A DNA stretch of 64,000 nt, taken from an uncultured Pirellulaceae bacterium. GTDB taxonomy: Bacteria > Planctomycetota > Planctomycetia > Pirellulales > Pirellulaceae. How positions within the stretch are numbered: the first letter of the stretch is position 1; each line of letters starts with the position of its first letter. Shown here piece by piece: positions 2,609 through 36,951 of the stretch. The stretch is taken from positions 1,202 through 65,201 of the forward strand of contig CAYWIS010000003.1 in NCBI GenBank assembly GCA_964458385.1. Direction: 5' to 3'. Below the pieces are notes generated by a model. The model had not been told where the DNA came from. It was given only the letters and a program-made list of their open reading frames with translations, and searched no databases. The position numbers and the translations under genes are program-made.

Positions 2609-3664
2609 ATGCTATCCAAGGAAAAACTGCTCTCGCGTACCGTCGAGCATATCGACATCACCCAACACAACGTGGTTCCCCTTGTGGACGCCATGCGCGA
2701 TATGGCGTTTAGCGCTCGTGACCTGGCGCGGGCGGCCGACATCTACGACCGTATGCTGCGCGACACCGACTGCGGAATTATCCTCTGTCTGGCTGGCTCT
2801 CTGGTGAGCGCGGGGCTGCGCAAGGTGTTCGTCGACATGGTGCGCAACCGAATGGTCGACGCCATTGTGAGCACCGGGGCGAACATTGTGGATCAGGATT
2901 TCTTCGAGGCGCTGGGATTCCGCCACTGGCAGGCCGAAGACCGCCTCAAGGCGGGATTAGACGACAACGAGCTGCGCGAACTTCACATCGACCGCATCTA
3001 TGACACCCTGATCGACGAAGACGAGCTGCGCATCTGCGACGAAACGTGCAAGCGAATCGCCGACGAGCTGCCGCCCCGTCCTTATTCCTCGCGCGAGTTC
3101 ATTCGCGAGATGGGCCGTTATCTTGTGGATCAGGGGCAGGGCGAAGACTCGATTATCCGGGCCGCTTATGAAGAAGACCTCCCGATCTTCTGCCCCGCCT
3201 TTTCCGACTGCTCAGCGGGACTAGGTATCGTGGGGCACTACTTTGAGCGCGGCGATGAACCGAAGACCTCGTTCGACAGCGCCAAGGACTTTTACGAACT
3301 GACGCAGATCAAGATTCACAACCCCACCACAGGAATCTTTATGATCGGCGGCGGCGTGCCCAAGAACTTCACGCAAGATATTGTGGTGGCGGCCGACATC
3401 TTGGGGCACGATGCTCCCATGCACAAGTACGCCATTCAAGTGACCGTGGCCGACAGCCGCGACGGGGCCTTGTCTGGATCGACGCTTAAAGAGGCGTCGA
3501 GCTGGGGTAAAGTGGACACCGCCTTCGAACAAATGGTGTACAGCGAGGCCACCCTCGCTGTGCCGCTCATTGCCGCCTATGGTTACCACAAAGGCGCATG
3601 GCGCAACCGCGAGTTCAAACGTTTCCAAAAGCTTTACGAAAAGGAAGTTACGGCCGCCAAGTAA
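2609..3664 (+). CDS. deoxyhypusine synthase-like protein (possible homospermidine-forming enzyme)
   Basis: 351-aa ORF with DHS-family blocks (STGANIVDQDFFEALG, IGGGVPKNFTQD). The EASSWGK motif contains the lysine that is catalytic in eukaryotic DHS. Confidence 0.85.
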   Translation: MLSKEKLLSRTVEHIDITQHNVVPLVDAMRDMAFSARDLARAADIYDRMLRDTDCGIILCLAGSLVSAGLRKVFVDMVRNRMVDAIVSTGANIVDQDFFEALGFRHWQAEDRLKAGLDDNELRELHIDRIYDTLIDEDELRICDETCKRIADELPPRPYSSREFIREMGRYLVDQGQGEDSIIRAAYEEDLPIFCPAFSDCSAGLGIVGHYFERGDEPKTSFDSAKDFYELTQIKIHNPTTGIFMIGGGVPKNFTQDIVVAADILGHDAPMHKYAIQVTVADSRDGALSGSTLKEASSWGKVDTAFEQMVYSEATLAVPLIAAYGYHKGAWRNREFKRFQKLYEKEVTAAK

Positions 3665-3998: not shown

Positions 3999-6200
3999 TT
4001 AGGGCATGTCGCAACTCAGGCCGCCCGCGGCCGGCACATAGCAGGTGCGGGTGTAGTCCATCACCATGCGATGTGCACTGAACCGCCACGCCAGGCTGGC
4101 GATGGAGTTCATCATCATCCGGATCCACCGTCGCGGCAGACCGTCGACATCTCGGTCATAGAATGTGGGGATGATCTCCGTCTCCAGGGTGTCGTACAGC
4201 GCCTCGGCGTCGCGAGCGTCGGTCACTTCGTCGTTGGTGTGACTGAAGCCTTTTCCAATGGCGAAGCCGTTTTGTCCGTCATACGCCTCCGCCCACCAAC
4301 CGTCGAGCACCGAGAAATTCAACCCGCCATTGAGCACCACTTTCTGACCGCTGGTGCCCGAAGCCTCCAGAGGCCGGCGGGGGTTGTTCAGCCACACATC
4401 GACCCCTTGCACCATGTGCCGGGCGACGTTGATGTCGTAGTCCTCGATAAACACGATACGATTGTTGAATCGTTCGTCGAATCGGGTGTTGACGATCTCC
4501 TGAATAAACTTCTTCCCCGGTTCATCCTTGGGATGGGCTTTACCCGCGAAAACGATCTGAATCGGCCGTTCGGGGTCGTTGATGAGCCGGTAGAGCCGCT
4601 CTTTGTCGCGCATGATGAGCGTCGCCCGCTTGTAAGTAGCGAAACGACGGCCAAATCCAATCGTTAGGATATTGGGATCAAGAATATTCCGGGCGGTTTC
4701 AATCACCTGATCGCTTTCGCCACGGCGGCGACACTGCCGAGCCACACGGCGCCGCACGAATTGAAGCAGCAGGTTCTTAAGCGCCACGTGCGTTTCCCAT
4801 AACTCCCCGGGATCGACCTCGTAGATCTTCTGCCATACCTCCGGCTCGCCCATTTTCTTCATCCAGTTAGCCGGGAAGTAACGGTCGTAAAGCTGCTGCA
4901 TCTGCCAGGCGAGCCAACTGGGAATATGGACGCCATTGGTAATGTGGCCAATAGGAATTTCCTCCTCGACGCGCCAGGGCCAAAGATTCGCCCACATACG
5001 GCGCGTCACATGGCCGTGCAACGAACTGACGGCGTTGGCCCGGCGCGAGAGCTTCAGGCCGACCACCGTCATGCAGAAGGGCTCGTGTACATTCTGCGGT
5101 TCAACGCGTCCCAGCCCCATGAGTTGATCGTACGAGATATTCAGTGCATCGCGCAGCGGGCCCAAGTGCTCTTCGACCAAGTCGCCGCGGAAGCGGTCAT
5201 GGCCGGCGGGAACGGGCGTGTGCGTGGTAAACACCGTCTGCTGCGAGACTTCGCGGAGCGCGTCGTCAAACGAGAGGCCATTGTCATGCATCCGCTCTCG
5301 GATTACCTCCAGCGGAGCGAACGCGCTGTGGCCTTCGTTCAAATGATAAACCCCAGGCCAGATCCCCAGCGCCCGAAGCGCTCGCACCCCCCCTACCCCC
5401 AGCACCAATTCTTGGCGAATGCGGGTCCGCTCATCGCCACCATAAAGACGGGAGGTCAACTCACGGTCTTCCGGGCGGTTCCCCTCAACATCGCAGTCCA
5501 GCAGGTACAACTTCACACGGCCGACGTGCATTAGCCACACTTTGGCGAATAGGTCGCCGGTGCGGGTCTCGATGCGAACGGTGATCGGCTCCCCCTCGGG
5601 AGAGAGGGCCGGCTCCATCGGCAAGTCTTCGACGTTGGTGTCTTGGTAGAGTTCGTTCTGGTAGCCGTGCTCGTCCAGCCGTTGGCGAAAATAGCCTTGA
5701 TCATAAAACAGCCCAATGCCAACCAGCGGGACCCCCAAACCGCTCGCGCTTTTGATATGGTCGCCCGAGAGAACCCCCAAGCCGCCTGAGTAAATGGGGA
5801 GCGACTCATGGATGCCAAACTCGGCGGAAAAATACGCGACGGGCTTTGCTCCTAACACGCCCGCATGCGTTGAACTCCAAGTTTGCTTTTCAGCCAAATA
5901 CTCCTTCAAGCGGCGATAAGCGTGGTTAATGCGGCTGTAAAGGACCATTTCAGCCGCGCGAATCTCCAGCCGTTCAGGCGTGAATTCCTTGAGCAGGGCG
6001 ATAGGGTTGTGGTCTAGTTGGCGCCAGCGAATGGGGTCCAGATCACGAAAGAGGTTGATCACCTCGGGATGCCAAGTCCACCACAAATTGCGGGCCAAGG
6101 CGTTGCACTTGTCGTATAGACTTTGCGCCGAAAGCTCTACACCCGGCGGCGTCGACTTGGGTGCAGTTGTGGGCGACATGAGCATACTCGCTGGGTTCAT
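3999..6200 (-). CDS. glgP: alpha-glucan (glycogen/maltodextrin) phosphorylase, GT35 family
   Basis: 733-aa ORF with an ATG start. It has the N-terminal DUF3417-like region (WWTWHPE, LDPIRWR), the [25 protein letters not shown] block and a C-terminal PLP-region block ([15 protein letters not shown]). Confidence 0.9.
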
Positions 6201-6880: not shown

Positions 6881-7447
6881 TTGCAAAGGAATGCGACGTT
6901 GAAACCCGCGAGCACGCTTCAATATTTGTATCTTTCCCGCCTTGCCCGCCCGGCTCACGAGCGCGTCTTGTATCGCGCGCTTCGGCGTCGGTCCGTGCGC
7001 TCCATCGTGGAAATCGGTATGGGCGATGGACGACGCGCACTGCGTCTGCTAGCCGTCGCGCAACGATTCCGCCCCAATGAGCGGTTAAGTTATTCTGGAA
7101 TTGACCTTTTCGAAGCCCGGCCTGCCGGAGCGCCTGGGTTAGCGCTCAAGGATGCGCATCGCGAACTAACGCGAACGGGCGTGCAGCTACGTCTGGTTCC
7201 CGGCGATCCGTGGGCGGCCTTATCGCGCTGCGCCAACGCGCTGGCTAACACCGACCTGCTAGTGATCTCGGCCGACCACGAAGCCGAGGCGCTAGCCCGC
7301 GCTTGGTTTTACCTGCCGCGCATGCTTCACGAAGGTTCGCTGGTCTTTCTTGAAGAAGGGGCAACCGGCAACCGCCACTATCGCCAATTGAGCTATCAAG
7401 AGGCAATTGCGCGAGCCCAAAGCGAACCTAGCCGACGCGCCGCCTAG
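6881..7447 (+). CDS. hypothetical protein with class I SAM-methyltransferase-like motif
   Basis: 188-aa ORF with a TTG start, so the start is uncertain. VRSIVEIGMGDGRRAL resembles methyltransferase motif I (E/D-x-G-x-G-x-G). No other domain was recognised. Confidence 0.45.
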   Translation: MQRNATLKPASTLQYLYLSRLARPAHERVLYRALRRRSVRSIVEIGMGDGRRALRLLAVAQRFRPNERLSYSGIDLFEARPAGAPGLALKDAHRELTRTGVQLRLVPGDPWAALSRCANALANTDLLVISADHEAEALARAWFYLPRMLHEGSLVFLEEGATGNRHYRQLSYQEAIARAQSEPSRRAA

Positions 7448-7494
7448 CCTTGCGTCCGCCGCGGCGAAGAGAAGGGGGCCAGAAGAGCAAGGTC

Positions 7495-9306
7495 CTACTC
7501 GTCGCCCCCGTAGTGCGTTAGGTGGACGATTTTCGCTTTCAGGCCGCGTCCGATTACAATGCTGTTCCAATTCACACGGAATGGGAGCGTCCCTTCCGCA
7601 AACTCGCGGATATAGCGCCCTCGCGCTGACGCGGGAGTGCCCGGCGGCGGCGTGCGCACGGCGCGGTCGAGTTCCTCGTCGGTCACAATTTTGGCTGCAT
7701 ACCCCATGTCGGCCAGTTGGACAAAGTACCCTTCGCCCGACAACTCGTGGTATCGCAAGTCGATTTTCTTGCGCACTTCCCATGGAGCGCCCGCGCTGGC
7801 TTCGTCCAACAGAAACTTCTTGGTAACCCAGTCCAAGCGTCCTATAAGCGACTCAAGGGCATCGTTGCCATGCGTCTCGGCCAGTGATTCGTGATTGAAA
7901 CAGCCGGGCTGTTCCTCCGACTTCGCCGACTGATTATTGCTCGTGGCGGCTTCCTCCAACGCGTCGAGCACTTCTTCCCAGCGTCGGAATACATCGTGGG
8001 CTTCCTCCGGAGCGTCAGGGCGGCTATCGAGAAACTGGCGCACGGCGTTTAAGTAAAAGCGCTGAATCTGGAGTGCTGTCCAATGACGTCCGCCCGACAG
8101 CGCCACACGGGCCGACAAGCTTGGATCCGCCCCGATCGTGCGTATTGCGCGACGAAAGGATCGCAATTGGGGGATCCGCGGCATGGCTCGAGATTCAATT
8201 GCGTCGAGGATCAACATGGTCACACCGACGCGCAAGTACTCGGCTTCTTCGCACATATTCGAGTCGCCAAGACAAATCTGAAGCCGCTGCCGTTGCCGGA
8301 ACAAGGCAAAATAATCCCCCGGCGCCGCCCACGCCTGGAACGCCATCGCCTTGAAAAAATGGCCAAAACTAAACATCGGCCGATCGTTCAAGAATCCGCC
8401 GTAGCCGACCAGACAGTTAATCGCCTCGGCCTTATCAGCCAAGTGAAATCGGCCTTCACGGTCGACCATACCCGCTCCGCCAATTACCGATCGACTTGCA
8501 AGAAAAGGCAAGAGTTGTTGTCGGTGTGGAACAAATGCAGTTAAACAACCCAACAACCAAAGCCCAGCCGCCAGCGGGGCAGTCACCACACGCGTGAACT
8601 GCAGGAAGGCGATTTCCAGCCACAACGGAAGTGGGGCAGCGGTTTCGTTTCCCTCGGCGGCCATCTCGCCTAAGAGCAAGAGAAGCGCGCGGCGTCGCGC
8701 AGGAAACGTCAGGAAACCTCGCAGCACCAGATAGATCAGCCCCGCCACCGCAAGGTACAAAACCAATATCGCCACCTGGAGCAACAGGCCCAGCCAACAG
8801 AGCAGCATCATCGGAGCCAGCAACACCAGGCCGATCCGCCAAGCGACAAGCCGCCATCCTTCGGCAACGCGCGCCTCGTAGTTCTCTTGAGCGCCGTAAA
8901 CGTTATCGCGACTGTCGCGGTCGTTCTTGAGCAACGTGAACTCGCCAAGCACATGCGCGCCGGCGGTGGACTCACGCAGCAGATGATCTTGCGCCCGCTG
9001 ATACACCAGCACTTGCCGGGGCGAGCGACACTCGGGCGTCGCGCCTTCGATCAGCCCGTGACCGCCCGAATATTGCACGCGTTCAAACCACACGGCGCCG
9101 CCGTTAGCGGTAAACACGCCTTGTTTGAAGTGATGGGCGTCGACGGCGAGCACCCGCTCGCGCAACGCCGAGAGCATCGCTAAGTAAAGCTGATACCGGG
9201 TCAGTCCCGGGCCACGGCGCGAAGCGAGCGGCCGGTGCCGTATGGCGTATTCGGTCTCAAGGCCGACCAAACGGCGAAAGATGGGGAGCGGTTTCTTAGC
9301 GGCCAA
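7495..9306 (-). CDS. PafA/Dop-family (Pup ligase/deamidase, carboxylate-amine ligase fold) protein with internal multi-helix hydrophobic insertion
   Basis: 603-aa ORF with a TTG start at 9306. Family blocks are LVGLETEYAI, NGGAVWFERV...GLIEGATPEC, LLKNDRDSRDNVYGAQENYE, LLPFLASRSVIGGAGMV and RLQICLGDSNMCEEAEYLRVG. Residues about 146-262 are strongly hydrophobic (LVLLAPMMLLCWLGLLLQVAILVLYLAVAGLIYLVL ... LPLWLEIAFLQF ... LAAGLWLLGCLTAFV). Confidence 0.8.
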   Translation of the reverse strand: MAAKKPLPIFRRLVGLETEYAIRHRPLASRRGPGLTRYQLYLAMLSALRERVLAVDAHHFKQGVFTANGGAVWFERVQYSGGHGLIEGATPECRSPRQVLVYQRAQDHLLRESTAGAHVLGEFTLLKNDRDSRDNVYGAQENYEARVAEGWRLVAWRIGLVLLAPMMLLCWLGLLLQVAILVLYLAVAGLIYLVLRGFLTFPARRRALLLLLGEMAAEGNETAAPLPLWLEIAFLQFTRVVTAPLAAGLWLLGCLTAFVPHRQQLLPFLASRSVIGGAGMVDREGRFHLADKAEAINCLVGYGGFLNDRPMFSFGHFFKAMAFQAWAAPGDYFALFRQRQRLQICLGDSNMCEEAEYLRVGVTMLILDAIESRAMPRIPQLRSFRRAIRTIGADPSLSARVALSGGRHWTALQIQRFYLNAVRQFLDSRPDAPEEAHDVFRRWEEVLDALEEAATSNNQSAKSEEQPGCFNHESLAETHGNDALESLIGRLDWVTKKFLLDEASAGAPWEVRKKIDLRYHELSGEGYFVQLADMGYAAKIVTDEELDRAVRTPPPGTPASARGRYIREFAEGTLPFRVNWNSIVIGRGLKAKIVHLTHYGGDE

Positions 9307-9390
9307 CGCAGTATGCGACCAAAGGAGTGAGACAAGCCGTGCACGATCTCACGCAGGAGGGAAACGGTATAGGGCAGGGGTGGTCGCTCA

Positions 9391-9421
9391 ATAAAAAGAG
9401 GGCAAGGGACCGACCTTGCCC
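9391..9421 (-). terminator. intrinsic terminator/attenuator between Pup-like ORF and ligase gene
   Basis: The minus strand reads GGGCAAGG-TCGGTC-CCTTGCCC, a perfect 8-bp GC-rich stem, immediately followed by TCTTTTTATT. It lies 118 nt after the small-ORF stop and 85 nt before the ligase start. Confidence 0.6.
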
Positions 9422-9538
9422 ACACTGCGCCTCGGCGGCATTGCTGGCGACGCCGTCAGCGACGATTCCATGCGGGACGTTGCACGGTCGACATCCTCGT
9501 GGAAACACGCTGCAGCTTCCGCGTTACGAGCAGGTCCG

Positions 9539-9706
9539 CTACTCGCCGCCGTGGGGAGTCACCGATTCGTCGAGATACTGCTGTGGTTCGCGACGGCTAT
9601 CACGCCCAATCTCGGCGAGCAGTTTTTCGACCGGCGCCGCGGCCACGCTTTTCGTTTCCTGAGCGGTCGTGTCCGTCGGGGGCGCAGCGAGCAGTTCGTA
9701 ACTCAT
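9539..9706 (-). CDS. Pup-like small protein (55 aa) with C-terminal GGE
   Basis: Hand-verified translation: MSYELLAAPPTDTTAQETKSVAAAPVEKLLAEIGRDSRREPQQYLDESVTPHGGE-stop, with ATG at 9704..9706. The protein is acidic and low-complexity. The LLAEI...Y....GGE layout recalls Pup (..DDLLDEID...FV..YVQKGGQ). It sits directly upstream of a PafA/Dop homologue on the same strand. Confidence 0.55.
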   Translation of the reverse strand: MSYELLAAPPTDTTAQETKSVAAAPVEKLLAEIGRDSRREPQQYLDESVTPHGGE

Positions 9707-9993
9707 CCTCAAATCTCGCAAAAAAGGAAATTGAAGGGAGGAACACAACACCCCTCACCCCTTGCATCCTACCCCAGGCCCAACTAGCGAGCAAGCGTCG
9801 TGCTTGACTTTCGCCTCAGGATGCGTTTTCCTCTGGGAGCAAATAGAACCACCAGGCCTAGGAGCCAGGAATCATACGTTGAGCGTTAGCGTCAGCCTCG
9901 TTCAACCAGGGTTCGCCCCCAACCTTTCATTTCGTACTCTCCCGTATCTGTTTTCTGACACCCTCTTCCCTACCTTCCATCCGCAGTACTCGT

Positions 9994-10815
9994 ATGCAAC
10001 TTGGACTGATTAACTCGGCGTGGGTGCAGGCGAACCAACCGACGCAGTTCGGCTTGCAGAAGACGAAGGAACTTGGTTTTGACTCAGTCGACATCTTTGT
10101 TGATCCGCTCGATATCGACGTGCGTGAGCGGCGGCTGATTAAAGACGAGTGCGACCGCCTCGAATTGCCAATTGTTTCGATCGCCTGCGTGGCCGTTGGT
10201 CTGATCGACTTTAATCCCTCGGTGCAAAGGTTCCACATTGAACGCGTCAAAAAATATCTGGACCTGGCCTATGAATATCAGGCGAAAAACGTGTTGCTAG
10301 TGCTGGGCGAGTACATCTGGAATAAGGAAGTCATTCCGCCCGAGGAGCAATGGCGAACAGGAGTAGCGAACTGTCGTCAACTTGGCGACTACGCAGCCAA
10401 TTTGGGTCTGAGGATTGCGTTAGAGCTAGAACCGTTTCCTTTATCGCTGGTGAATTCGGTCGAAACGATGGTGCGATTCCTGGACGACTGCAACCACGAA
10501 GCTGTGCGGGCCAATATTGATATTTCGCACCTATTGCTGGCTGGCGTGAAGCCCGAGGAGTTGCGTCTGCTCAAGGGCCGTGCAATTCACGTTCACATTT
10601 CCGACTGCGACGGCAAAAAGCACGGCGACCTGCCGCCTGGGCGCGGCGTCGTTCCCTTTGAGCCGTACTTAAAGGAAATCAAGGACCTGGACATCGACGG
10701 GGCGATATCGATCGAGCTGGAGTACTCCCCCGAACCCGAGAAAATTGTCGAATGGGTCGCAGAAGCTTACCACGAAACCGATCGGCTCATGCAGAAATTC
10801 AACCTCCGCGGGTAA
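9994..10815 (+). CDS. sugar phosphate isomerase/epimerase (xylose isomerase-like TIM barrel)
   Basis: 273-aa ORF with an ATG start. The pattern is typical of the AP_endonuc_2 family (LGFDSVDIF, LRIALELEP, HVHISDCDG..HGDLPPGRG, ISIELEY). Confidence 0.85.
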   Translation: MQLGLINSAWVQANQPTQFGLQKTKELGFDSVDIFVDPLDIDVRERRLIKDECDRLELPIVSIACVAVGLIDFNPSVQRFHIERVKKYLDLAYEYQAKNVLLVLGEYIWNKEVIPPEEQWRTGVANCRQLGDYAANLGLRIALELEPFPLSLVNSVETMVRFLDDCNHEAVRANIDISHLLLAGVKPEELRLLKGRAIHVHISDCDGKKHGDLPPGRGVVPFEPYLKEIKDLDIDGAISIELEYSPEPEKIVEWVAEAYHETDRLMQKFNLRG

Positions 10816-14482: not shown

Positions 14483-14538
14483 CCCACAAAAGGGGCTCCA
14501 CTAAACGAGTGCATGCATGGAGCGATAACAGCAAGCCG

Positions 14539-15771
14539 CTACCGTGAGGCAATTCGGGCGTTGCGACGCCAGAGGTAAAGGGCGCAGCCAGTGGCGATCG
14601 TCGAGATCATGGCCAGCGCTCCGTACTTTTGCCAGTCCTCATTCAGGTACCCGGCCAATGCGGCGCCAATACCGCCTAAGCCAAACGTCAACGTGAAACT
14701 CAGCCCGTAGCTAAAGCTACGGCGTTGGCGCGGCGTGTACTTGGAAATCAAGCTGTTGTAAATGGGCTGGTACATAAAGTGAAACAAGGCGAAAGCCGCG
14801 GCGGCCGCAACGCGACCATAGCCCTCGGCAAACGCCATTGCGGTCAAACAGGGCACATTAAGCAGAGTAACCGCGGTCAATTGCCATTCGAGCCGCGACG
14901 GCCGCGCAATGCTTCCTGCGATATACTGCCCTACGCACCCCACCAACAATACGCTGCTGGTCCAGAAGGCGGCGTGATCCACCTTATCGGTCGGCAACGC
15001 CGCGCGTACATCTACCTCGCTCAGATAGCGCACCAGGAAGCTGAGCGCCCCTGCGTACACCATGCCTTGCAAGACGCCCACTCCCGACAACCCGGCAAAC
15101 GAAATCCAATCCCATCGGTCATCCTGCGATGGTCCCGTGCGAGTCGCGGCGGGCCCAGGCTCGCCATACCGACATAAGTACGCCACAAAAGCTGCCCCCA
15201 GAACCGCGCCGGGAAGTACAAGCATCCAAAAGTAGTCGCGCCACGAAAATCCGACGGAGATTGCCGCCCATGCCAACAGGGGCGCGGCGGCAATGCCGGC
15301 TGACCCGAACACGCCATGCATTCCCAGTGCTCGGCCGCGGGTTTCTGGCGTCGTGACATGGGAGATCAAGGCCAACCCTGCCGGATGGTAAATCGACGCG
15401 GCCGCTCCCATGGCAAGCATTAGTACAAAGAGGACCGCAAGCGGCGCAGCCAATCCCAATAGCAACGAACAAACCGCACATCCGCCGAGGAAAAGAGCCA
15501 GCATCCGCGCTGCACCCAACCGGTCAACCAGCCAGCCAGCCGCTAAGGCCCCGAAGCCCCATGGCAGCCGCCAACAAAAGATCAGCCATCCGGTAACCAC
15601 GGTTGAAACTTGGTAATCCTTCGCGACCAGGGGCTCAACGCTAGGAAAGGAAAGCTCATAGAAATGCGCCATGGCGTGCGCGCAGCAAGTCAATAGAACT
15701 AGCCCCGCCGTCGACGGATACACAGCAGCAGGCGTCGGAGAGGGAATCGTTGTTGGCGTCGTAGCGCTCAT
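14539..15771 (-). CDS. MFS transporter
   Basis: ORF 14539..15831, with the start placed at the ATG at 15771 (MSATTPTT). It has about 12 hydrophobic segments and MFS-like loops (GWLVDRLGAARM, TPETRGRALG). Confidence 0.85.
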   Translation of the reverse strand: MSATTPTTIPSPTPAAVYPSTAGLVLLTCCAHAMAHFYELSFPSVEPLVAKDYQVSTVVTGWLIFCWRLPWGFGALAAGWLVDRLGAARMLALFLGGCAVCSLLLGLAAPLAVLFVLMLAMGAAASIYHPAGLALISHVTTPETRGRALGMHGVFGSAGIAAAPLLAWAAISVGFSWRDYFWMLVLPGAVLGAAFVAYLCRYGEPGPAATRTGPSQDDRWDWISFAGLSGVGVLQGMVYAGALSFLVRYLSEVDVRAALPTDKVDHAAFWTSSVLLVGCVGQYIAGSIARPSRLEWQLTAVTLLNVPCLTAMAFAEGYGRVAAAAAFALFHFMYQPIYNSLISKYTPRQRRSFSYGLSFTLTFGLGGIGAALAGYLNEDWQKYGALAMISTIATGCALYLWRRNARIASR

Positions 15772-15967
15772 GAGGTCGGATTCTCGTTTCCTTTTTCCAT
15801 TAGAGCAGTTATCATGCGCCACGCGGCCCAAGTTTGCTACGCCCCGCTAGAGAAGGCTATGGTTGATAAGCCAGCCTGAACACTTTGCCGCTCCCTCCGT
15901 TTTGCCCTCTTCTGGCAATCGGAACCTTTCCGCCATCCCGGCGATTTCTGAAGCCCTTCGTCAAATC

Positions 15968-18900
15968 ATGATGCGATTCAACACGGCGATCATTCTACTC
16001 ACTTGGTGCTTTGCCTCTTCTAGCTTGGCTGATGACACGTCTATCGAGGGACTTCGACTTCCCGAAGGATTTCGGGTATCGCTCTATGCCGATGACGACT
16101 TAGCGCACGATATCTATACGCTGACCTTGGACTCCGCAGGGCGAGTCGTTGTAGCTGGACGTGGTTACGTGAAAGTGTTGCATGATGACGACGGTGACGG
16201 CCGGGCCGATCGTTCGACGTTATTTTCGAATACACCTGCCGCAGGCGCTCGCGGTATGGTGTTCGATGGCCCCCATCTCGTTTGCACCGGGGATAACGCC
16301 CTGGCTCGCTATGAAGATCACGATGGAGACCTTGTCGCCGATGGCCCACCCGTAATTCTGGCGCGGCTCAAGCAAGCTGGCGAGCACTCATCCAACGGCG
16401 TAGTGAAAGGCCCCGATGGTTGGTATTACGTTGTTTGCGGCAATGAAGTGGGGATTGATACAAGCCACGTAACGACTCCCGGTTCGCCCGTGAAGCGGCC
16501 GCATCAAGGCGCTATTGTGCGCGTCGCGCCCGATGGCTCACAGTCGGAAGTCGTCGCCCACGGATTTCGAAATCCCTATGACTTGGCCATCGACGCCCGC
16601 GGTGCGGTCCTTGTGGTGGACTCCGACGGCGAGCGGGACCAATATCTCCCTTGGTACAGCCCCACGCGTTTGTTTGACGTAGCCGCAGGAATGCACCATG
16701 GCTGGATGCTTTCGGGATGGTCGCGCAGTTGGAACCGACCGCCATGGTTTTTTGACACAGCGCCTCGCTTGGTGGAAATTGGCCGCGGATCGCCCACGGG
16801 CGCCGTCGTCTATCGTCACCGCCAATTCCCGGAAGCGTACCGAGGTGGCATATTCAGCGCCTGCTGGAGTCTGGGACGCATCTACTATTTTCCACTCGCC
16901 TCGGAAGGCGCCAGTTACGCAAGCCATTGCGAGGTGTTTCTACAAGCTACCGGCGGCGCAGGCTTCGCCCCCGTCGATCTGGCTGTCGGCCCAAAAGGCG
17001 ATCTGTTTGTAGCTATTGGCGGCCGCGGCACACGAGGCGGAGTTTTCCGCATTTCTTACGAATCGCCAGAGGCGCCGCCCTCCGACACGCCGAATGTTGA
17101 TCCCGTATCGCGTGTATTGAATGCTGATCAACCGTTGGCAAGCTGGTCTCGTGCGCAGTGGATTCCCTTGGCGAAGGAGTTAGGGGCGAAGGCCTTCGAG
17201 CGCGCAGCTTGTGATCCTTCGCTGTCAGTTGCCGAGCGGGGGCGCGCCGTCGAAGTTTTGGTTGAATTGTTCGACGGTCTACGCCCTCAGGTCGCAAGCG
17301 AAATAATCGATAGCGCTGAGCCGGACGTGATCGCTCGCGTCGCATGGGCTCTAGCACGCCGACCGCAGGACGTAAACAGCGAAACATTGCTTGCTCGGCT
17401 GACACATAGCCAGCACCCCTGGGTGGAGCGAGTCGCGTGGGAGGGTCTAGCTGCGTTGCCTGCCTTAACCGACGCATCGCTAACGGCTGATTGGGACGAC
17501 GTACACGACCATGTTCATCGTCGCGTCCGCGCCGCGGCGATTCTCGCCGGGGCCCGCTTGAGTGAGTCGGGATGGGCCAAGGCCGAAGCAACGGATCGAT
17601 CACTTCCTGTGAAACTCGCCGGGCTGTGGGTCCGGCACTACCGAGGCCAACTTCAAGCGGCGGACTTTACGACGGCCTTGGAAATGCTCCGGCAAACCGA
17701 CACCCCAGAACAGTTACTGGAGATCGTGCGACTGTTGCAAATCGTATTGGGCGACGTCCGTGTCGAACCGACGAAGCCCGGCGTGTATGCAGGTTATCAA
17801 CGTAATGAAACACCAGGGGCTGTACCGCCCGAACAACTGCAGTCCGCCATGCAACGGTTAGCCGTAATTTTCCCCTCGGGTAATGAGCCGCTCGACCGAG
17901 AAATCGCCCGGTTGGCAGGCATGCTGCAAATCACGTCGTCGGAAATCCTCGCAGACTTAGCGGCCAAGTGGACGCCGGAGAGTCGCGTGGAGGACGACAT
18001 TCATTATCTTATCGTGCTCTCGCGGATTCCCGGCAAGCGCAGCGTAGGGGTCACCCGGCGCACGGCCGCCGCACTAGCGCGTTTGCATCACAAGATGCAG
18101 CAAGGGAACTTCTACGCTAGTCGTTTTTGGCCCGAGCGTGTGGGCGAGACATTTGCCGAATTGCTCCGCCGCGATCCTGCGTTGGCGGACACGTTCGTTA
18201 GCGATCCGGCCTTGGAGTTGCCTGCTCAAAGCATCCTAGCGCTGCAACTTCCATTGGTGCAGCAGCGACAAGCGGCACAGCGATTATTGGATCGAGCCGA
18301 AGAATGGTCGGCTGACCTTGTGCGTCTAGTTGCTACGCTTCCCGCCGACGAACATCGCCCAGTGCTCCGCGCCCTATGGGACCGCGACATTGCCTTACGC
18401 GAAGCGGCCATTGTGCCCTTAGCGGTTAACCCCCACGAAGACGACCGCGCGCGGTTTGTCGAAACGTTGCGAAGTGGCGGTCCCGATGTGGCGGCGACCG
18501 CCGCCCAGGCGCTGCTCCGCCTCAATTCTCGCGCGCGTCCCGAAGAAATAGCGACCGCCCTCACCGCGTTTCGGCAGTACATGCGCGAGCGCCAGTATCA
18601 CGACACCGCGCAAGCATTGCATCAATTGCTTTCGAAGTGGACTAACCAGTCGCTGGCCGACTTGGCGACGTTGAACAAAAACCCCGTCGCAACCTATGAG
18701 GCATGGGCCGCATGGTTCACCAAGACCTACCCTCGTTACGTACACCATTTGAGCGCAGCGTCGGGTGAAGACAGCGCCGCGTTCCTCGCTCGACTGGATA
18801 ACCTGGATTGGTCGCACGGCGATCAAGAGCGAGGCCGGTTAGCGTTCCAGAAGTTCTCCTGCGCGCGCTGTCACGAAGGAGCTTCTCGCTGGGGCCCTGA

Positions 18901-23105: not shown

Positions 23106-25973
23106 ATGAAAGTTTCCAACCTTTGCCGTCGCGGCGTCATGGTGAGCGTTACCGTATGGCTGGTGTGTGTCGCCACGCGCATTGTTGCCGCAGACGCGAT
23201 ATCGCCTGAGCAGGAAAAGTTCTTCGAAGAAAAAGTCCGGCCTGTGTTGGCCAACCGTTGCTACGAATGCCACGGCCCCAAGAAGCAGGAGAGCGGTCTG
23301 CGACTTGATTTCCGGGACGGAGTGCTCAAGGGAGGCGACAGTGGAACTCCTGCCGCCGTTCCCGGCAAACCCGACGAAAGCCTTCTAGTGGCGGCGGTAC
23401 GCGGTACGGGCGATTACGAGATGCCGCCCAAAGGCAAACTCTCGCCCGAAGAGATCGACGTTCTTGCTAAGTGGGTGGAAATGGGTCTGCCTTGGCCGGC
23501 CTCGGATGCAGCGCCTGTCATCAAGAGCTTAGATGAACAAATCCAGGAAGTGCGGACCACACACTGGTCGTTTCAACCCATCCGGCGTCCTCCTGTACCC
23601 CAGGTGCAGGACCGTGATTGGCCCAATACGCCACTCGACAACTACGTACTCGCCAAACTGGAAGCAGCGGGACTGACTCCTTCGCCCGAAGCCGATCGGC
23701 GCACGCTCATCCGGCGGCTCTCATTCGACCTTACCGGGCTGCCGCCCACACCGGAACAAGTCGACGAGTTCCTGGCCGACAACGGACCTGACGCCTACGC
23801 TCGGCTGGTCGACCGCTTGTTAGCGTCGCCACACTACGGCGAGCGGTGGGGCCGTCACTGGCTCGACGTGGCCCGCTACGCCGATACTCGCGGGTACGCA
23901 TTCGCACAGGAACGAAGATACCCGTACGCCTACACGTACCGTGATTATGTGATTCAGTCGCTTAACGACGATCTTCCCTTTGACCGCTTTGTTTGCGAGC
24001 AATTAGCCGCTGACCTGCTTCCGCCGGAAGAAGGCAATCGGCCGCTAGCAGCGATGGGCTTTCTCACCGTTGGCCGCAAATTCAATAACCGTCACGACGA
24101 CTTGGACGACCAAATTGACGTCGTCGGACGGGGATTGTTGGGTTTAACGGTGGCCTGCGCCCGCTGTCACGACCACAAATACGATCCGATTCCCGCGGCC
24201 GATTATTACTCGCTTTATGGGGTATTCGCCAGTTCGCGTGAGCCCGAAGAACTACCGCTATTAGGCGATCCCGCGCAAGCGGCCGGTTACGAGGCCTTTA
24301 TGGCCGAGTTAAACAAACGACGCCAGGCGCTAGAGGATTACGAAAACGAAGTACGCGTTCAGATCCAGCAAGTGGCCCGTGAAAAGGCCACGGATTATCT
24401 GGCCCGTGCAGCCGAACTGCCCGAGTCGTCGCTTGAGGCGTTGCCGTTGATCTCGCTCAAGAAGGATGAACTGAAACCCCGGTTGCTTGAACGCTGGCGC
24501 CAATATCTCAGACGGCATAGCCAACCCGATCATCCCGTGTTCGGCCCGTGGTCCCTGCTGTTGCAGTTGCCCGACGACAATTTCGCTGCTCAAGCGGCCG
24601 ATGTCGTAGCGAAACTCACCGAGAAGCCCGAGGGTCTGGAAACGGGACAACTCAACCCCCGCGTCAAGGCGGTCTTCCTGGCTGAATCGCTGTCGGCCAA
24701 ATCCGATGTCGTGCGAGTCTACGGTCAACTGCTCGCCGAAGCGATGGAGCAATGGAAGCAAGCGGGCGGCGACCAGTCGGCCCAAGAGAAACTCTCGCCC
24801 GAGTGGCGGCAAGTGGCTGCGGTTCTGACCGCTGACGACGCTCCTACGACCATCTCACGCGGCGATGTGCGTGGCTTAATGGACCGTGCACAGCGGAATC
24901 GGCAGCGTGAGTTGGAAAAGCAAATCGAAACATTTCAGGCCAATTCGCCCAATGCGCCGCCACGCGCGATGGTGCTGGCGGAAAATGACCAACCTCATAA
25001 TCCGCGAATCTTCCTTCGTGGCGACGCTGCTCGGCCGGGCGATCCGGTTCCGCGGCAGTTTCTAGCCGTGCTGGAAGGCGCCGAGCGAAAGCCCTTTGTC
25101 CAAGGCAGTGGCCGTTTGGAATTAGCTCAAAAGATTGTGTCTGACGATAACCCCCTTACTGCCCGAGTCATCGTCAACCGCATCTGGATGCATCACTTTG
25201 GTCAACCGTTGGTCGATACGCCAAGCGATTTCGGCGTGCGCACCGCTAAGCCGGTACAAGCAGACGTTTTGGATTACCTGGCCGCCCTTCTGCGCGAAAG
25301 CGGCTGGTCCCTTAAAACACTGCACCGTGAAATCGTACTATCGGCCACCTACCGTCAAAGCTCAACCAGAGTGGATAGCCAAACCGGCGGTTCGGAATTG
25401 GCGACCAGCGTTTCAACGTCACCACCGGATCCACGGACTATTGACCCCGAAAATCGCTTGCTCTGGCGCATGAACCGCCGCCGGTTGGAGTTCGAGCCCT
25501 TGCGCGATTCACTGCTATTTGTGGCGGGACGGCTGGATACCACCATGGGCGGCCGACCGGCCGATCTGATCGAAGCGCCGTTCAGTCGGCGGCGAGCGGT
25601 TTACGGCTTTATCGATCGGCAGGACTTGCCGAACTTGCTGCGGGTGTTCGATTTTGCCAGCCCCGACCAGAGCGCTGCAAATCGGCCCCAAACCACGGTG
25701 CCGCAACAAGCGTTGTTCCTGATGAACTCGCCTTTTGTGATCGAGCAAGCGCAAGCCCTCGCGGCGCGCCCCGAAGTCGCTTCGGCCGCAACGGACGCCG
25801 AGAAGATCGCGGCCCTGTACCGCATCGTCTTCGCCCGTTCCCCCAGTGACGCGGAACAACAGGTCGCCTTGGATTTCGTGCAATCAACGCAAGCCGGATC
25901 CACGCCGCTGTCAACTCGGGAGCAGTTAGCGCAACTTCTGCTCCTGACAAACGAGTTCACCTTCGTTGACTAG
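23106..25973 (+). CDS. PSCyt1/PSCyt2/PSD1 (DUF1549/DUF1553) planctomycete cytochrome-c-domain protein
   Basis: 955 aa. It has the N-terminal CYECHGPKKQESGLRLD heme motif, the DUF1549 block (RRLSFDLTGLPPTPEQV, ASPHYGERWGRHWLDVARYADT), a CARCHDHKYDPI motif and the C-terminal DUF1553 block (NRIWMHHFG, TVPQQALFLMNSPF). Confidence 0.9.
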   Translation: MKVSNLCRRGVMVSVTVWLVCVATRIVAADAISPEQEKFFEEKVRPVLANRCYECHGPKKQESGLRLDFRDGVLKGGDSGTPAAVPGKPDESLLVAAVRGTGDYEMPPKGKLSPEEIDVLAKWVEMGLPWPASDAAPVIKSLDEQIQEVRTTHWSFQPIRRPPVPQVQDRDWPNTPLDNYVLAKLEAAGLTPSPEADRRTLIRRLSFDLTGLPPTPEQVDEFLADNGPDAYARLVDRLLASPHYGERWGRHWLDVARYADTRGYAFAQERRYPYAYTYRDYVIQSLNDDLPFDRFVCEQLAADLLPPEEGNRPLAAMGFLTVGRKFNNRHDDLDDQIDVVGRGLLGLTVACARCHDHKYDPIPAADYYSLYGVFASSREPEELPLLGDPAQAAGYEAFMAELNKRRQALEDYENEVRVQIQQVAREKATDYLARAAELPESSLEALPLISLKKDELKPRLLERWRQYLRRHSQPDHPVFGPWSLLLQLPDDNFAAQAADVVAKLTEKPEGLETGQLNPRVKAVFLAESLSAKSDVVRVYGQLLAEAMEQWKQAGGDQSAQEKLSPEWRQVAAVLTADDAPTTISRGDVRGLMDRAQRNRQRELEKQIETFQANSPNAPPRAMVLAENDQPHNPRIFLRGDAARPGDPVPRQFLAVLEGAERKPFVQGSGRLELAQKIVSDDNPLTARVIVNRIWMHHFGQPLVDTPSDFGVRTAKPVQADVLDYLAALLRESGWSLKTLHREIVLSATYRQSSTRVDSQTGGSELATSVSTSPPDPRTIDPENRLLWRMNRRRLEFEPLRDSLLFVAGRLDTTMGGRPADLIEAPFSRRRAVYGFIDRQDLPNLLRVFDFASPDQSAANRPQTTVPQQALFLMNSPFVIEQAQALAARPEVASAATDAEKIAALYRIVFARSPSDAEQQVALDFVQSTQAGSTPLSTREQLAQLLLLTNEFTFVD

Positions 25974-36009: not shown

Positions 36010-36951
36010 TTATTCGGGGGTGGGCGTTTCGTCCACCAAGCGTTCGATAAGGGCCTCAATAATCGCGCGCTGACCGGCTTGCAGAAAGCCACGGGTGATG
36101 ACGCGATGGGCCAAGACAGGTACGGCTAGCCGTTTCACATCGTCGGGTGCCACAAAGTCGCGGCCTTCAATTAACGCCAGCGCCTGGGCCGCGCGGTACA
36201 GGCATAACGCTCCCCGCGTGCTTACGCCAAAGTGCAGTTCCTCGCAGTGGCGCGTAGCTTCGACAATGTCGAGCAAGTAGTCGGCCACCGACTCCTCAAC
36301 TGTTACCTCGCGCACCTGCCGTTGTAGGTCGATCAATTGCTCGATGCTTATAACCGGCTGCAGATCTTCGACCGGCTCGTTCAGGCGATGACTGAAAAGC
36401 ACTTGCCGCTCGTCGGCCCGTTCGGGATAGCCCATGGAAATACGCATGAGGAACCGGTCGAGTTGGCTTTCAGGCAAGGGGTAGGTGCCCTCGAACTCGT
36501 AGGGGTTCTGGGTGGCAATGACCATAAACGGCCGCGGAAGGTCATAGGTGGCCCCATCGACAGAAACGCGGTTTTCGCTCATCGCCTCCAACAACGCACT
36601 TTGGGTGCGGGGCGGGGCGCGGTTGATCTCGTCGGCCAATACCACGTTGGCGAAAAGCGGCCCTTCCCGGAAGACAAACTGCGAAGTTTGGCTGTTAAAT
36701 ACCGAGCCCCCCACGATGTCGCTAGGCAACAGGTCGGGCGTGAACTGCAAGCGACGAAACTCGCCCGAGATACTGCGAGCCAGCGCCTTGCCGACTAGCG
36801 TCTTTCCTACACCGGGCACATCCTCGAGCAAGAGATGTTCACCAGCTAGCAGCGCCACGAGGCAACGGCGCACGACTTCGCGCTTACCTAAGACGACCGA
36901 ACATACATTGTCCTCCAATTGGGCAATCAGCCCGCCAACATCGGTCGCCAT
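36010..36951 (-). CDS. MoxR-family AAA+ ATPase
   Basis: 313 aa. It has Walker A (LLLEDVPGVGKT), Walker B (LADEINRAPPRTQSALLEAM) and the MoxR AAA_3 blocks (VIATQNPYEFEGTYPLPESQLDRF). Confidence 0.9.
   Translation of the reverse strand: MATDVGGLIAQLEDNVCSVVLGKREVVRRCLVALLAGEHLLLEDVPGVGKTLVGKALARSISGEFRRLQFTPDLLPSDIVGGSVFNSQTSQFVFREGPLFANVVLADEINRAPPRTQSALLEAMSENRVSVDGATYDLPRPFMVIATQNPYEFEGTYPLPESQLDRFLMRISMGYPERADERQVLFSHRLNEPVEDLQPVISIEQLIDLQRQVREVTVEESVADYLLDIVEATRHCEELHFGVSTRGALCLYRAAQALALIEGRDFVAPDDVKRLAVPVLAHRVITRGFLQAGQRAIIEALIERLVDETPTPE

Follow-up and report, generated by a model that had tools for sequence, protein, structure and literature searches.

A probably membrane-anchored Pup-ligase/Dop-family protein and its co-encoded Gly-Gly-Glu partner in an uncultured Pirellulaceae bacterium

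Pupylation is understood almost wholly as a proteasome-targeting tag of Actinobacteria. Here we analyze a locus in a 64,000-nucleotide stretch of DNA from an uncultured Pirellulaceae bacterium (NCBI GenBank assembly GCA_964458385.1, contig CAYWIS010000003.1, positions 1,202 to 65,201 of the forward strand; this whole stretch is called the window below), in which a gene of the Pup-ligase/Dop family lies next to a gene for a 55-residue protein ending in Gly-Gly-Glu (GGE). The product of the larger gene, referred to as the ligase, is probably a membrane-anchored member of this family of carboxylate-amine ligases that works with the co-encoded small protein. The closest described systems are the ligases of Rhodopirellula baltica and Plesiocystis pacifica, for which a transmembrane (TM) insert, an adjacent Pup gene and a putative membrane anchor were described by Iyer, Burroughs and Aravind (2008; Biol Direct 3:45; PMC2588565). 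The same authors noted no link of these Pup ligases to proteasome genes and raised the possibility that membrane proteins are their substrates. The window ligase resembles them in family membership, in a hydrophobic insertion that begins right behind core strand 4, in a neighbouring small gene with a G[EQ] C-terminus, in the absence of proteasome linkage and in the proposed anchoring at the cytoplasmic face. The hydrophobic insert and its Pup-like neighbour are real and, like the idea of an anchor, have been known since the 2008 genome analysis, and the membrane anchor suggested in a preliminary description of the window is not new, because the same insertion and the same interpretation were already published (Iyer et al., 2008).

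Our analysis adds a wider census, a strict GGE tail, an Asp-to-Glu change, the absence of a conserved third gene and a lower TM count. Four TM segments were counted in 2008, whereas about two are clearly TM-grade in the family of the window ligase, and the linked 'gene for a membrane protein' of the earlier analysis (Iyer et al., 2008) is not a conserved neighbour in the 86 loci compared here. The window ligase is 36–38% identical to the proteins of Roseimaritima and Pirellula, and our survey found recognisable versions in Roseimaritima, Pirellula and a metagenome-assembled genome (MAG) of Myxococcales. In the phylogeny of Hecht et al. (2020; PMC7947786), a single homologue in Planctomycetes, 29–31% identical to PafA and Dop, served as outgroup. 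Experiments on pupylation or UBact in planctomycetes were not found in the open-access literature searched, which yielded just the 2008 analysis and the outgroup use of 2020. The two genes of the locus are arranged as follows:

7495..9306, minus strand: Pup-ligase/Dop-family gene, 603 amino acids (aa), with a probable TTG start at 9306 (assigned by PF03136, AlphaFold2 and Foldseek)
9539..9706, minus strand: Pup-like gene, 55 aa, reading MSYELL...RDSRREPQQYLDESVTPHGGE before the stop codon, on the same strand and 232 nucleotides (nt) upstream of the ligase gene

The 603-aa open reading frame (ORF) matched the Pfam profile PF03136 (Pup_ligase) over aa 12–583 with an E-value of 1.5e-80 and 271.8 bits, compared to a gathering cut-off of 25, and covered the profile over its full length (positions 1–440 of 441). 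An AlphaFold2 (AF2) model of the ligase, built on 59 homologues, reached a mean predicted local distance difference test score (pLDDT) of 92.2 and a predicted template modelling score (pTM) of 0.92. Foldseek matched this model to Dop and PafA structures with E-values from 1e-24 to 1e-17 and target-normalised TM-scores (TMt) of 0.69–0.83, and the two-domain fold of these enzymes was recovered with 7OYH, 4B0R and 4BJR (E 1e-24 to 1e-23, TMt 0.72–0.83). The query-normalised TM-score was only 0.62, as expected if approximately 130 residues lie outside the shared fold. The best match in both sequence and structure was the depupylase/deamidase Dop (PDB 4B0R, 5LRT, 7OYH, 9CKU; TMt 0.79–0.83, E ~1e-24), which differs from the window ligase by its Dop loop of about 40 residues, the lack of a TM insert and its action as a hydrolase. 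PafA of Actinobacteria (PDB 4B0T, 4BJR; TMt 0.69–0.72) shares with the window ligase the fold (Foldseek E 2e-23, TMt 0.72), the GhExE, strand-4 and strand-6 motifs and the absence of a Dop loop, and the Gly-Gly-Glu end of the small partner is also that of Corynebacterium Pup. Unlike the window ligase, PafA is soluble, has no insertion after ENYL, uses a catalytic Asp and works with Mpa and the proteasome. The carboxylate-amine ligases of the GCS2/YbdK type (PDB 1R8G, 1TT4) have a similar glutamine-synthetase-type core (Foldseek E 9e-05) but are small-molecule ligases without the C-terminal Pup-binding domain, the TM insert or a protein-tag partner. The public gene calls for the protein and its close relatives (P0001, P0002, P0006 and P0007; 542–568 aa) begin at Met44, by which the GhExE active-site motif is lost; with the TTG at 9306 (region 9175–9306, minus strand), the N-terminus agrees with those of the other family members.

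The feature that sets the window ligase apart from Dop and PafA is a long segment within the catalytic domain:

8548..8874, minus strand: family-specific insertion, aa 145–253, from core strand 4 (YGAQENYE) to the next conserved helix (alignments to Dop and PafA)

Sequence and profile alignments to the solved structures left these approximately 108 residues without a counterpart in Dop or PafA. ENYE144 of the ligase was aligned with ENYL159 of Dop, and the alignment restarted at about aa 254 of the ligase opposite residues 158–162 of Dop. In PafA of Corynebacterium glutamicum, residue 134 is the last of ENYL, and the alignment resumes with a block from residue 142 (KALGKRLMPFLITRQ). The preliminary description had placed an insertion of about 115 residues at 8521–8871 (aa 146–262; the peptide it quoted matches aa 151–259) between the landmarks YGAQENYE (aa 137–144) and LLPFLASR (aa 265–272). 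These landmarks are correct and the length is close to the measured one, and since the segment is absent from the solved Dop and PafA structures, it represents a true insertion.

The insertion was present, nearly gapless and with a median length of 107 aa, in each of 233 homologues surveyed, which are almost all from Planctomycetota, chiefly Pirellulales, plus one Myxococcales MAG. Among the 120 best database homologues (542–610 aa, 48–100% identical), all kept the segment almost free of gaps; the named entries among them are annotated as 'PafA2 family protein' and originate from Pirellulales, Pirellulaceae or Planctomycetes MAGs. In this segment, W156, R157, P165, W171, Y184, A188, Y192, G213, W229, E231, R239, P244, A246 and F258 are invariant or nearly so, and further conservation was observed at G159, the Arg-rich positions 203–206, a LFGRDLVEGRETG-type motif at 211–223, P227 and P244-L-A246. 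When one genome per GTDB species was scanned, relatives of the ligase were detected in at least 178 species-level genomes, and every inspected relative had the insert. The best 80 of the 178 genomes are nearly all from Planctomycetota and include the complete genome of Anatilimnocola sp. NA78, Roseimaritima sediminicola, a Pirellula MAG, a Gemmatales MAG and the Myxococcales MAG. A profile of the insertion alone matched 52 clusters at E ≤ 1e-3 among 1.84 billion representative proteins, all of them ligase homologues of 550–690 aa (with the match at approximately residues 135–300) or evident fragments thereof, indicating that the insert occurs in this ligase family alone. No stand-alone membrane protein or other host that could have been the donor of the insert was found among these 1.84 billion proteins. 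A Pfam scan of the insertion returned nothing at E ≤ 10, so the insert is not a known membrane domain. Pirellula-type relatives (L083, 2843–4789; P0165) contain an extra low-complexity polar stretch of about 60 residues within the insert, after the hydrophobic part, and the loop following the hydrophobic stretch thus tolerates large polar additions.

We judged the topology of the insert from its hydropathy and charge distribution, from the variation within the family, from the secondary structure given by AlphaFold and from covariation, which together distinguish the following parts:

8836..8859, minus strand: amphipathic lead-in, aa 150–157 (GWRLVAWR), with W156 invariant and R157 98% conserved; probable cytoplasmic interface
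8713..8835, minus strand: TM-grade hydrophobic stretch, aa 158–198, with 38 uncharged residues (hydropathy, Hessa-type score, homologues)
8533..8706, minus strand: conserved amphipathic module, aa 201–258, with an R-rich loop, the LFGRDLVEGRETG-type motif and helix 228–256 (conservation, charge)

In the window protein, the 19-residue Kyte-Doolittle (KD) maximum was 2.53 in aa 152–203, 1.85 in aa 240–259 and 0.92 outside the insert. Over the 233 homologues, the maximum outside the insert had a median of 1.22, and no other TM-like segment was detected. Hessa-type sums of the window protein were negative solely in windows within aa 158–201, with values of –2.2 for the TM-grade stretch and +1.7 for the module aa 201–258. 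The first region (aa 158–198) was TM-grade in 96–100% of the 233 homologues, and the uncharged run after W156-R157 has a median length of 38 residues. By these sequence measures, the first approximately 40 residues of the insert are clearly hydrophobic enough for a bilayer. The second region is marginal: KD values of at least 1.6 were reached in 85% of the homologues, but the Hessa-type sum had a median of +2.1 and was negative in only 9%, and the module carries the conserved charges of the R-rich positions 203–206, R214, D215, E218, R220, E221, E231 and R239. E231 and R239 are 91% and 90% conserved, respectively, and R239 is separated by 14 apolar residues from the often basic position 254. 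The TM character that the preliminary description ascribed to the entire segment therefore holds for aa 158–198 and is doubtful for aa 201–258, and its proposal of two transmembrane hairpins with three to four TM helices is not supported, since only aa 158–198 are clearly TM-grade and the second half has a positive median Hessa-type sum. The TM count has probably to be lowered from four to two.

It appears hardly credible that the insert lies outside the membrane and forms a greasy four-helix bundle for oligomerisation of a soluble enzyme or for packing on the catalytic domain. Such a bundle would agree with the compact and confident helical sub-domain in the AF2 model, with its whole-chain pTM of 0.92, and with covariation: mean-field direct coupling analysis (DCA) of 232 sequences (effective number of sequences, Meff, ~155) yielded top-scoring pairs that join the ends of the insert, G159–L252 as the strongest, followed by 147–257 and 152–259, and the G159–L252 pair shows that the first and last insert helices touch. 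However, 38–46 residues without charge are typical of bilayer segments and not of soluble cores. The KD maximum of the stretch is 2.5, and its Hessa-type sum is negative in 96% of the 233 sequences. The hydrophobic stretch is bordered by Trp-Arg at one end and Arg clusters at the other, and the AT skew of the plus strand over the ligase gene (0.23–0.24) is as strong as that over the gene for an MFS transporter in the same window, all of which speaks against a soluble bundle.

How the chain crosses the membrane is less clear-cut. The AF2 model predicts four helices in the insert (150–162, 164–196, 201–212/214–218 and 228–256), of which two are long, before a normal Dop helix at 259–271, while hydropathy backs approximately two TM segments. 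The arrangement that we favor is a single tight helical hairpin (about 158–176 and 180–198) with its ends and the module aa 201–258 in the cytoplasm, and we regard the chances of this prediction as even. It fits the distribution of Lys and Arg, the charges that occur in the middle of the stretch in some relatives and the position that E231 and R239 would have in a second span. The mean number of Lys plus Arg is 1.7 in the flank 146–157, 4.4 in the loop 196–227 and 3.4 in the flank 254–264, compared to 0.06 in the middle of the stretch (172–183). A subclade (L047, L049, L052, L059, L062, L067, L079 and P0128) has D178, mostly followed by R or K at position 179, and further members have E, R or K at position 177. 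The uncharged run extends to 42–46 residues in roughly 55 of the 233 members. Several observations weigh against the hairpin: AF2 predicts one continuous helix from 164 to 196 (pLDDT ~96), which does not fit a turn near 177, and the same continuous helix was predicted for P0090 despite its Arg in the middle of the stretch, so that this run did not discriminate. Likewise, the anti-diagonal averages of the DCA, at its shallow Meff of ~155, were flat for the hairpin as well as for a model with two long helices.

Taken at face value, the AF2 model consists of two long antiparallel helices with the loop 197–227 at their far end. In the same anchored enzyme, helices 164–196 (B) and 228–256 (D) would then each span the membrane once, and the loop would be periplasmic, where its R-rich, LFGRDLVEGRETG sequence could sense or bind something beyond the cytoplasm. 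We consider this topology unlikely. The continuous helix B and the 29-residue helix D were predicted with pLDDT values of 93–98 for two family members, and the KD value of helix D is at least 1.6 in 85% of the homologues. Judging from the residue numbering, an antiparallel arrangement of helices B and D would bring the conserved Y184 opposite R239 and Y192 opposite E231, and some weakly covarying pairs (192–246, 199–241 and 172–255) fit contacts between the two helices. On the other hand, this topology would place about 4.4 Lys/Arg residues per 30-residue loop on the outside, contrary to the positive-inside rule, and would bury the 90% conserved R239 near the center of the bilayer together with the D-R or D-K pair at 178–179 of the subclade. 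The uncharged stretch of 42–46 aa in roughly 55 of 233 members is too long for one span, and helix D has a positive Hessa-type sum in 91% of the members. In addition, AF2 is not membrane-aware, and both runs share most of their alignment. Four spans, or no membrane insertion at all, have small probabilities.

Because the insert leaves and re-enters the catalytic fold at neighbouring points, both halves of this domain share one side of the membrane in every membrane model, as the preliminary description had supposed, and the charge distribution makes the cytoplasm the most likely side. In the favored hairpin, aa 158–198 would cross into and out of the cytoplasmic membrane, with the cytoplasmic ends marked by W156-R157 and by R196 together with the R-rich positions 203–206. 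The amphipathic module aa 201–258 would remain cytoplasmic and pack on the lead-in helix and the membrane surface, by which the entire catalytic domain would be kept at the inner face of the membrane. From this position, the ligase would use ATP to activate the Glu at the end of the small protein, and the small protein would then be joined to lysine amino groups of membrane-proximal proteins.

The presumed partner in this reaction has the sequence MSYELLAAPPTDTTAQETKSVAAAPVEKLLAEIGRDSRREPQQYLDESVTPHGGE and its C-terminal end is YLDESVTPHGGE, i.e. PHGGE directly before the stop codon. It therefore has the attributes expected for a Pup, with a length between 50 and 90 residues, a C-terminal Gly-Gly-[Glu/Gln] and a gene beside that of the ligase. 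Of 85 related loci, 82 have a corresponding GGE-ending ORF directly upstream of the ligase gene, and in one more locus, from Roseimaritima, the tail is the variant NGE. The Pup-like gene is thus an almost universal partner of the ligase gene. The consensus of the C-terminus is YL(D/E)E(T/S)VVPHGGE, with GGE in all 82 loci, whereas the variable N-terminal half abounds in T, S, P, A and Q. Among the 79 distinct GGE-ending sequences, lengths of 50–62 aa are the most common. In most genomes, the stop codon of the Pup-like gene abuts or overlaps the start of the ligase gene, for example by 11 nt in L004. Since the tail always ends in Glu, a deamidase step would be unnecessary. The C-terminus of the ligase itself reads HYGGDE before the stop codon (7495–7515, minus strand, aa 598–603) and was considered as a Pup-like tail as well, but the wider family ends differently and the resemblance is probably incidental; ligase tails of the type [FY]GG[DE]... 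are restricted to the closest relatives of the window protein.

The active site of the ligase can be compared to PafA and Dop at the following positions:

9250..9264, minus strand: GhExE motif, G15-L-E17-T-E19, Mg/ATP site, nearly invariant and aligned with GIETEY of Dop and PafA
8881..8889, minus strand: Q140-E141-N142, the [HQ]x[NH] motif of core strand 4, directly before the insertion (conservation)
9082..9084, minus strand: E75, an invariant Glu aligned with the catalytic Asp of PafA and Dop (profile alignment, conservation)

The motifs that define the carboxylate-amine ligases are GhExE, [HQ]x[NH], a conserved Arg and [QH]x4D of strand 6 (Iyer et al., 2008). In the window family, GhExE, Q140-E-N142, R272 and Q343...D348 are invariant or nearly so in 59–80 homologues; Q140 and E141 are invariant and N142 is nearly invariant. 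The acidic residue of strand 3 is kept as well, within LIEGATPEC. As far as these motifs tell, the Pup-ligase-type active site is intact, with the ATP/Mg- and phosphate-binding motifs kept. The catalytic Asp of the YLDVGS-type motif of PafA is missing and E75 is found instead: in the profile alignment with C. glutamicum PafA, WFE of the ligase stands opposite YLD. Compared to PafA, an extra loop of about 6 residues follows E75 (9061–9084, minus strand, aa 75–82), and its residues 79–82 are the sole region of the AF2 model with a pLDDT below 50. The Dop loop is missing, as the region from GhExE to GATPEC lacks approximately 22 residues compared to its counterpart in Dop and can be aligned with PafA without a break.

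Some of these results weaken the assignment as a Pup-conjugating enzyme. In the window family, the Asp of PafA/Dop catalysis is replaced by Glu and accompanied by the extra loop, and the ligase scores far below the equivalog cut-offs for PafA (TIGR03686, 166.2 bits compared to 551.3) and Dop (TIGR03688, 143.4 bits compared to 492.3), so that ligase rather than hydrolase activity is inferred. Furthermore, no HMMER similarity of the Pup-like protein to the Pfam family Pup (PF05639) or to Pup chains in the PDB was found when the window protein and 45 members were searched against Pfam at E ≤ 10 and profiles of 5 and 45 members against PDB and Pfam; the matches of both profiles were at chance level and none was a Pup. 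A link of the small proteins to Pup by PSI-BLAST and HMM searches was reported previously (Iyer et al., 2008) and was not reproduced here. The name Pup-like thus relies on size, tail and synteny, in addition to the profile searches of 2008.

The same observations bear on the question whether the enzyme ligates proteins at all. It might mainly act as a hydrolase in the manner of the depupylase Dop, or it might attach the GGE tail to a non-protein amine, for example a lipid head group. The ligase is nearer to Dop than to PafA in profile-to-PDB scores (206 and 159 bits, respectively) and in sequence E-values (1.7e-29 and 1.2e-23), the catalytic Asp is a Glu with an altered loop next to it, and the active site would lie at the membrane surface. 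Nevertheless, we regard either activity as improbable. A single homologue was reported per organism (Hecht et al., 2020) and no second PF03136 paralogue is present in the window, and a tag that already ends in Glu would be useless without a ligase. In addition, the GhExE–GATPEC region, in which the Dop loop is missing, is contiguous with PafA and not with Dop, and every ATP- and phosphate-binding motif that is needed for ligation has been kept. A variant to which we assign an even smaller likelihood is that the hairpin presses the active site onto the bilayer and the GGE protein is joined to amines at the membrane itself. Acceptors could then be the lysines of integral membrane proteins or, as the most unusual case, the head groups of phosphatidylethanolamine or ornithine lipids, and the juxtamembrane module aa 201–258 would act as a substrate gate. 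A lipid acceptor, if true, would constitute a bacterial counterpart of the Atg8-PE lipidation.

The genomic neighbourhood is informative with respect to the fate of the putative tag. In an all-against-all BLASTP comparison of the ORFs of 86 loci, no neighbour except the Pup-like gene recurred in more than 11 loci, and the recurrent ORFs were solely antisense shadow ORFs of the ligase gene. Neither a partner protease, as envisaged in the preliminary description, nor a membrane protein was found as conserved neighbour in these 86 loci. Among 29 large ORFs from roughly the first 56 kb of the window, none encoded a proteasome subunit or an Mpa-type AAA domain, and there was no conserved proteasome or Mpa gene at the 86 loci, a result that refers to the loci and not to whole genomes. 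The absence of proteasome genes at the locus fits a non-canonical role. Since conservation of the Pup-like protein is, in addition, confined to its ligase-binding C-terminal half, this absence points to a tag fate that is probably regulatory or independent of the proteasome. The occurrence of the two-gene module in at least 178 species-level genomes, mostly of Pirellulales, without proteasome linkage at the examined loci would imply a second, membrane-centered use of pupylation chemistry, for which cultured carriers exist with Anatilimnocola sp. NA78 and Roseimaritima sediminicola.

Other genes in the window include a deoxyhypusine-synthase homologue (2609–3664, plus strand), a planctomycete cytochrome-domain protein of the PSCyt1/PSCyt2/PSD1 type (23106–25973, plus strand) and a MoxR-type AAA_3 ATPase (36010–36951, minus strand), none of which is linked to the ligase gene in other genomes. 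The PSCyt1/PSCyt2/PSD1 genes identify the window as planctomycete DNA. The closest gene for a membrane protein is that of the MFS transporter, at a distance of 5 kb (14.5–15.8 kb). The AT skew of the plus strand rises to 0.23–0.27 over 8001–9500, which contains the ligase insert, and over 14501–16000, which contains the transporter gene; both genes are on the minus strand, and the rise is a compositional footprint of T-rich hydrophobic codons. The spacer between the two genes of the module contains one further element:

9390..9421, minus strand: strong terminator-like hairpin with T-run (GGGCAAGGTCGGTCCCTTGCCC TCTTTTTATT) and an 8-bp stem that includes 6 GC pairs

A scan of 7000–10500 with Rfam gave no match. 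A similar hairpin is located at the equivalent site in L006 (2919–2950), and in L001 (about 5800–5850) the hairpin sequence aligns, although the terminator scan did not flag it there. The hairpin has thus been kept, with sequence changes, in both relatives that also have the spacer, and it could serve to set a high ratio of tag to enzyme expression.

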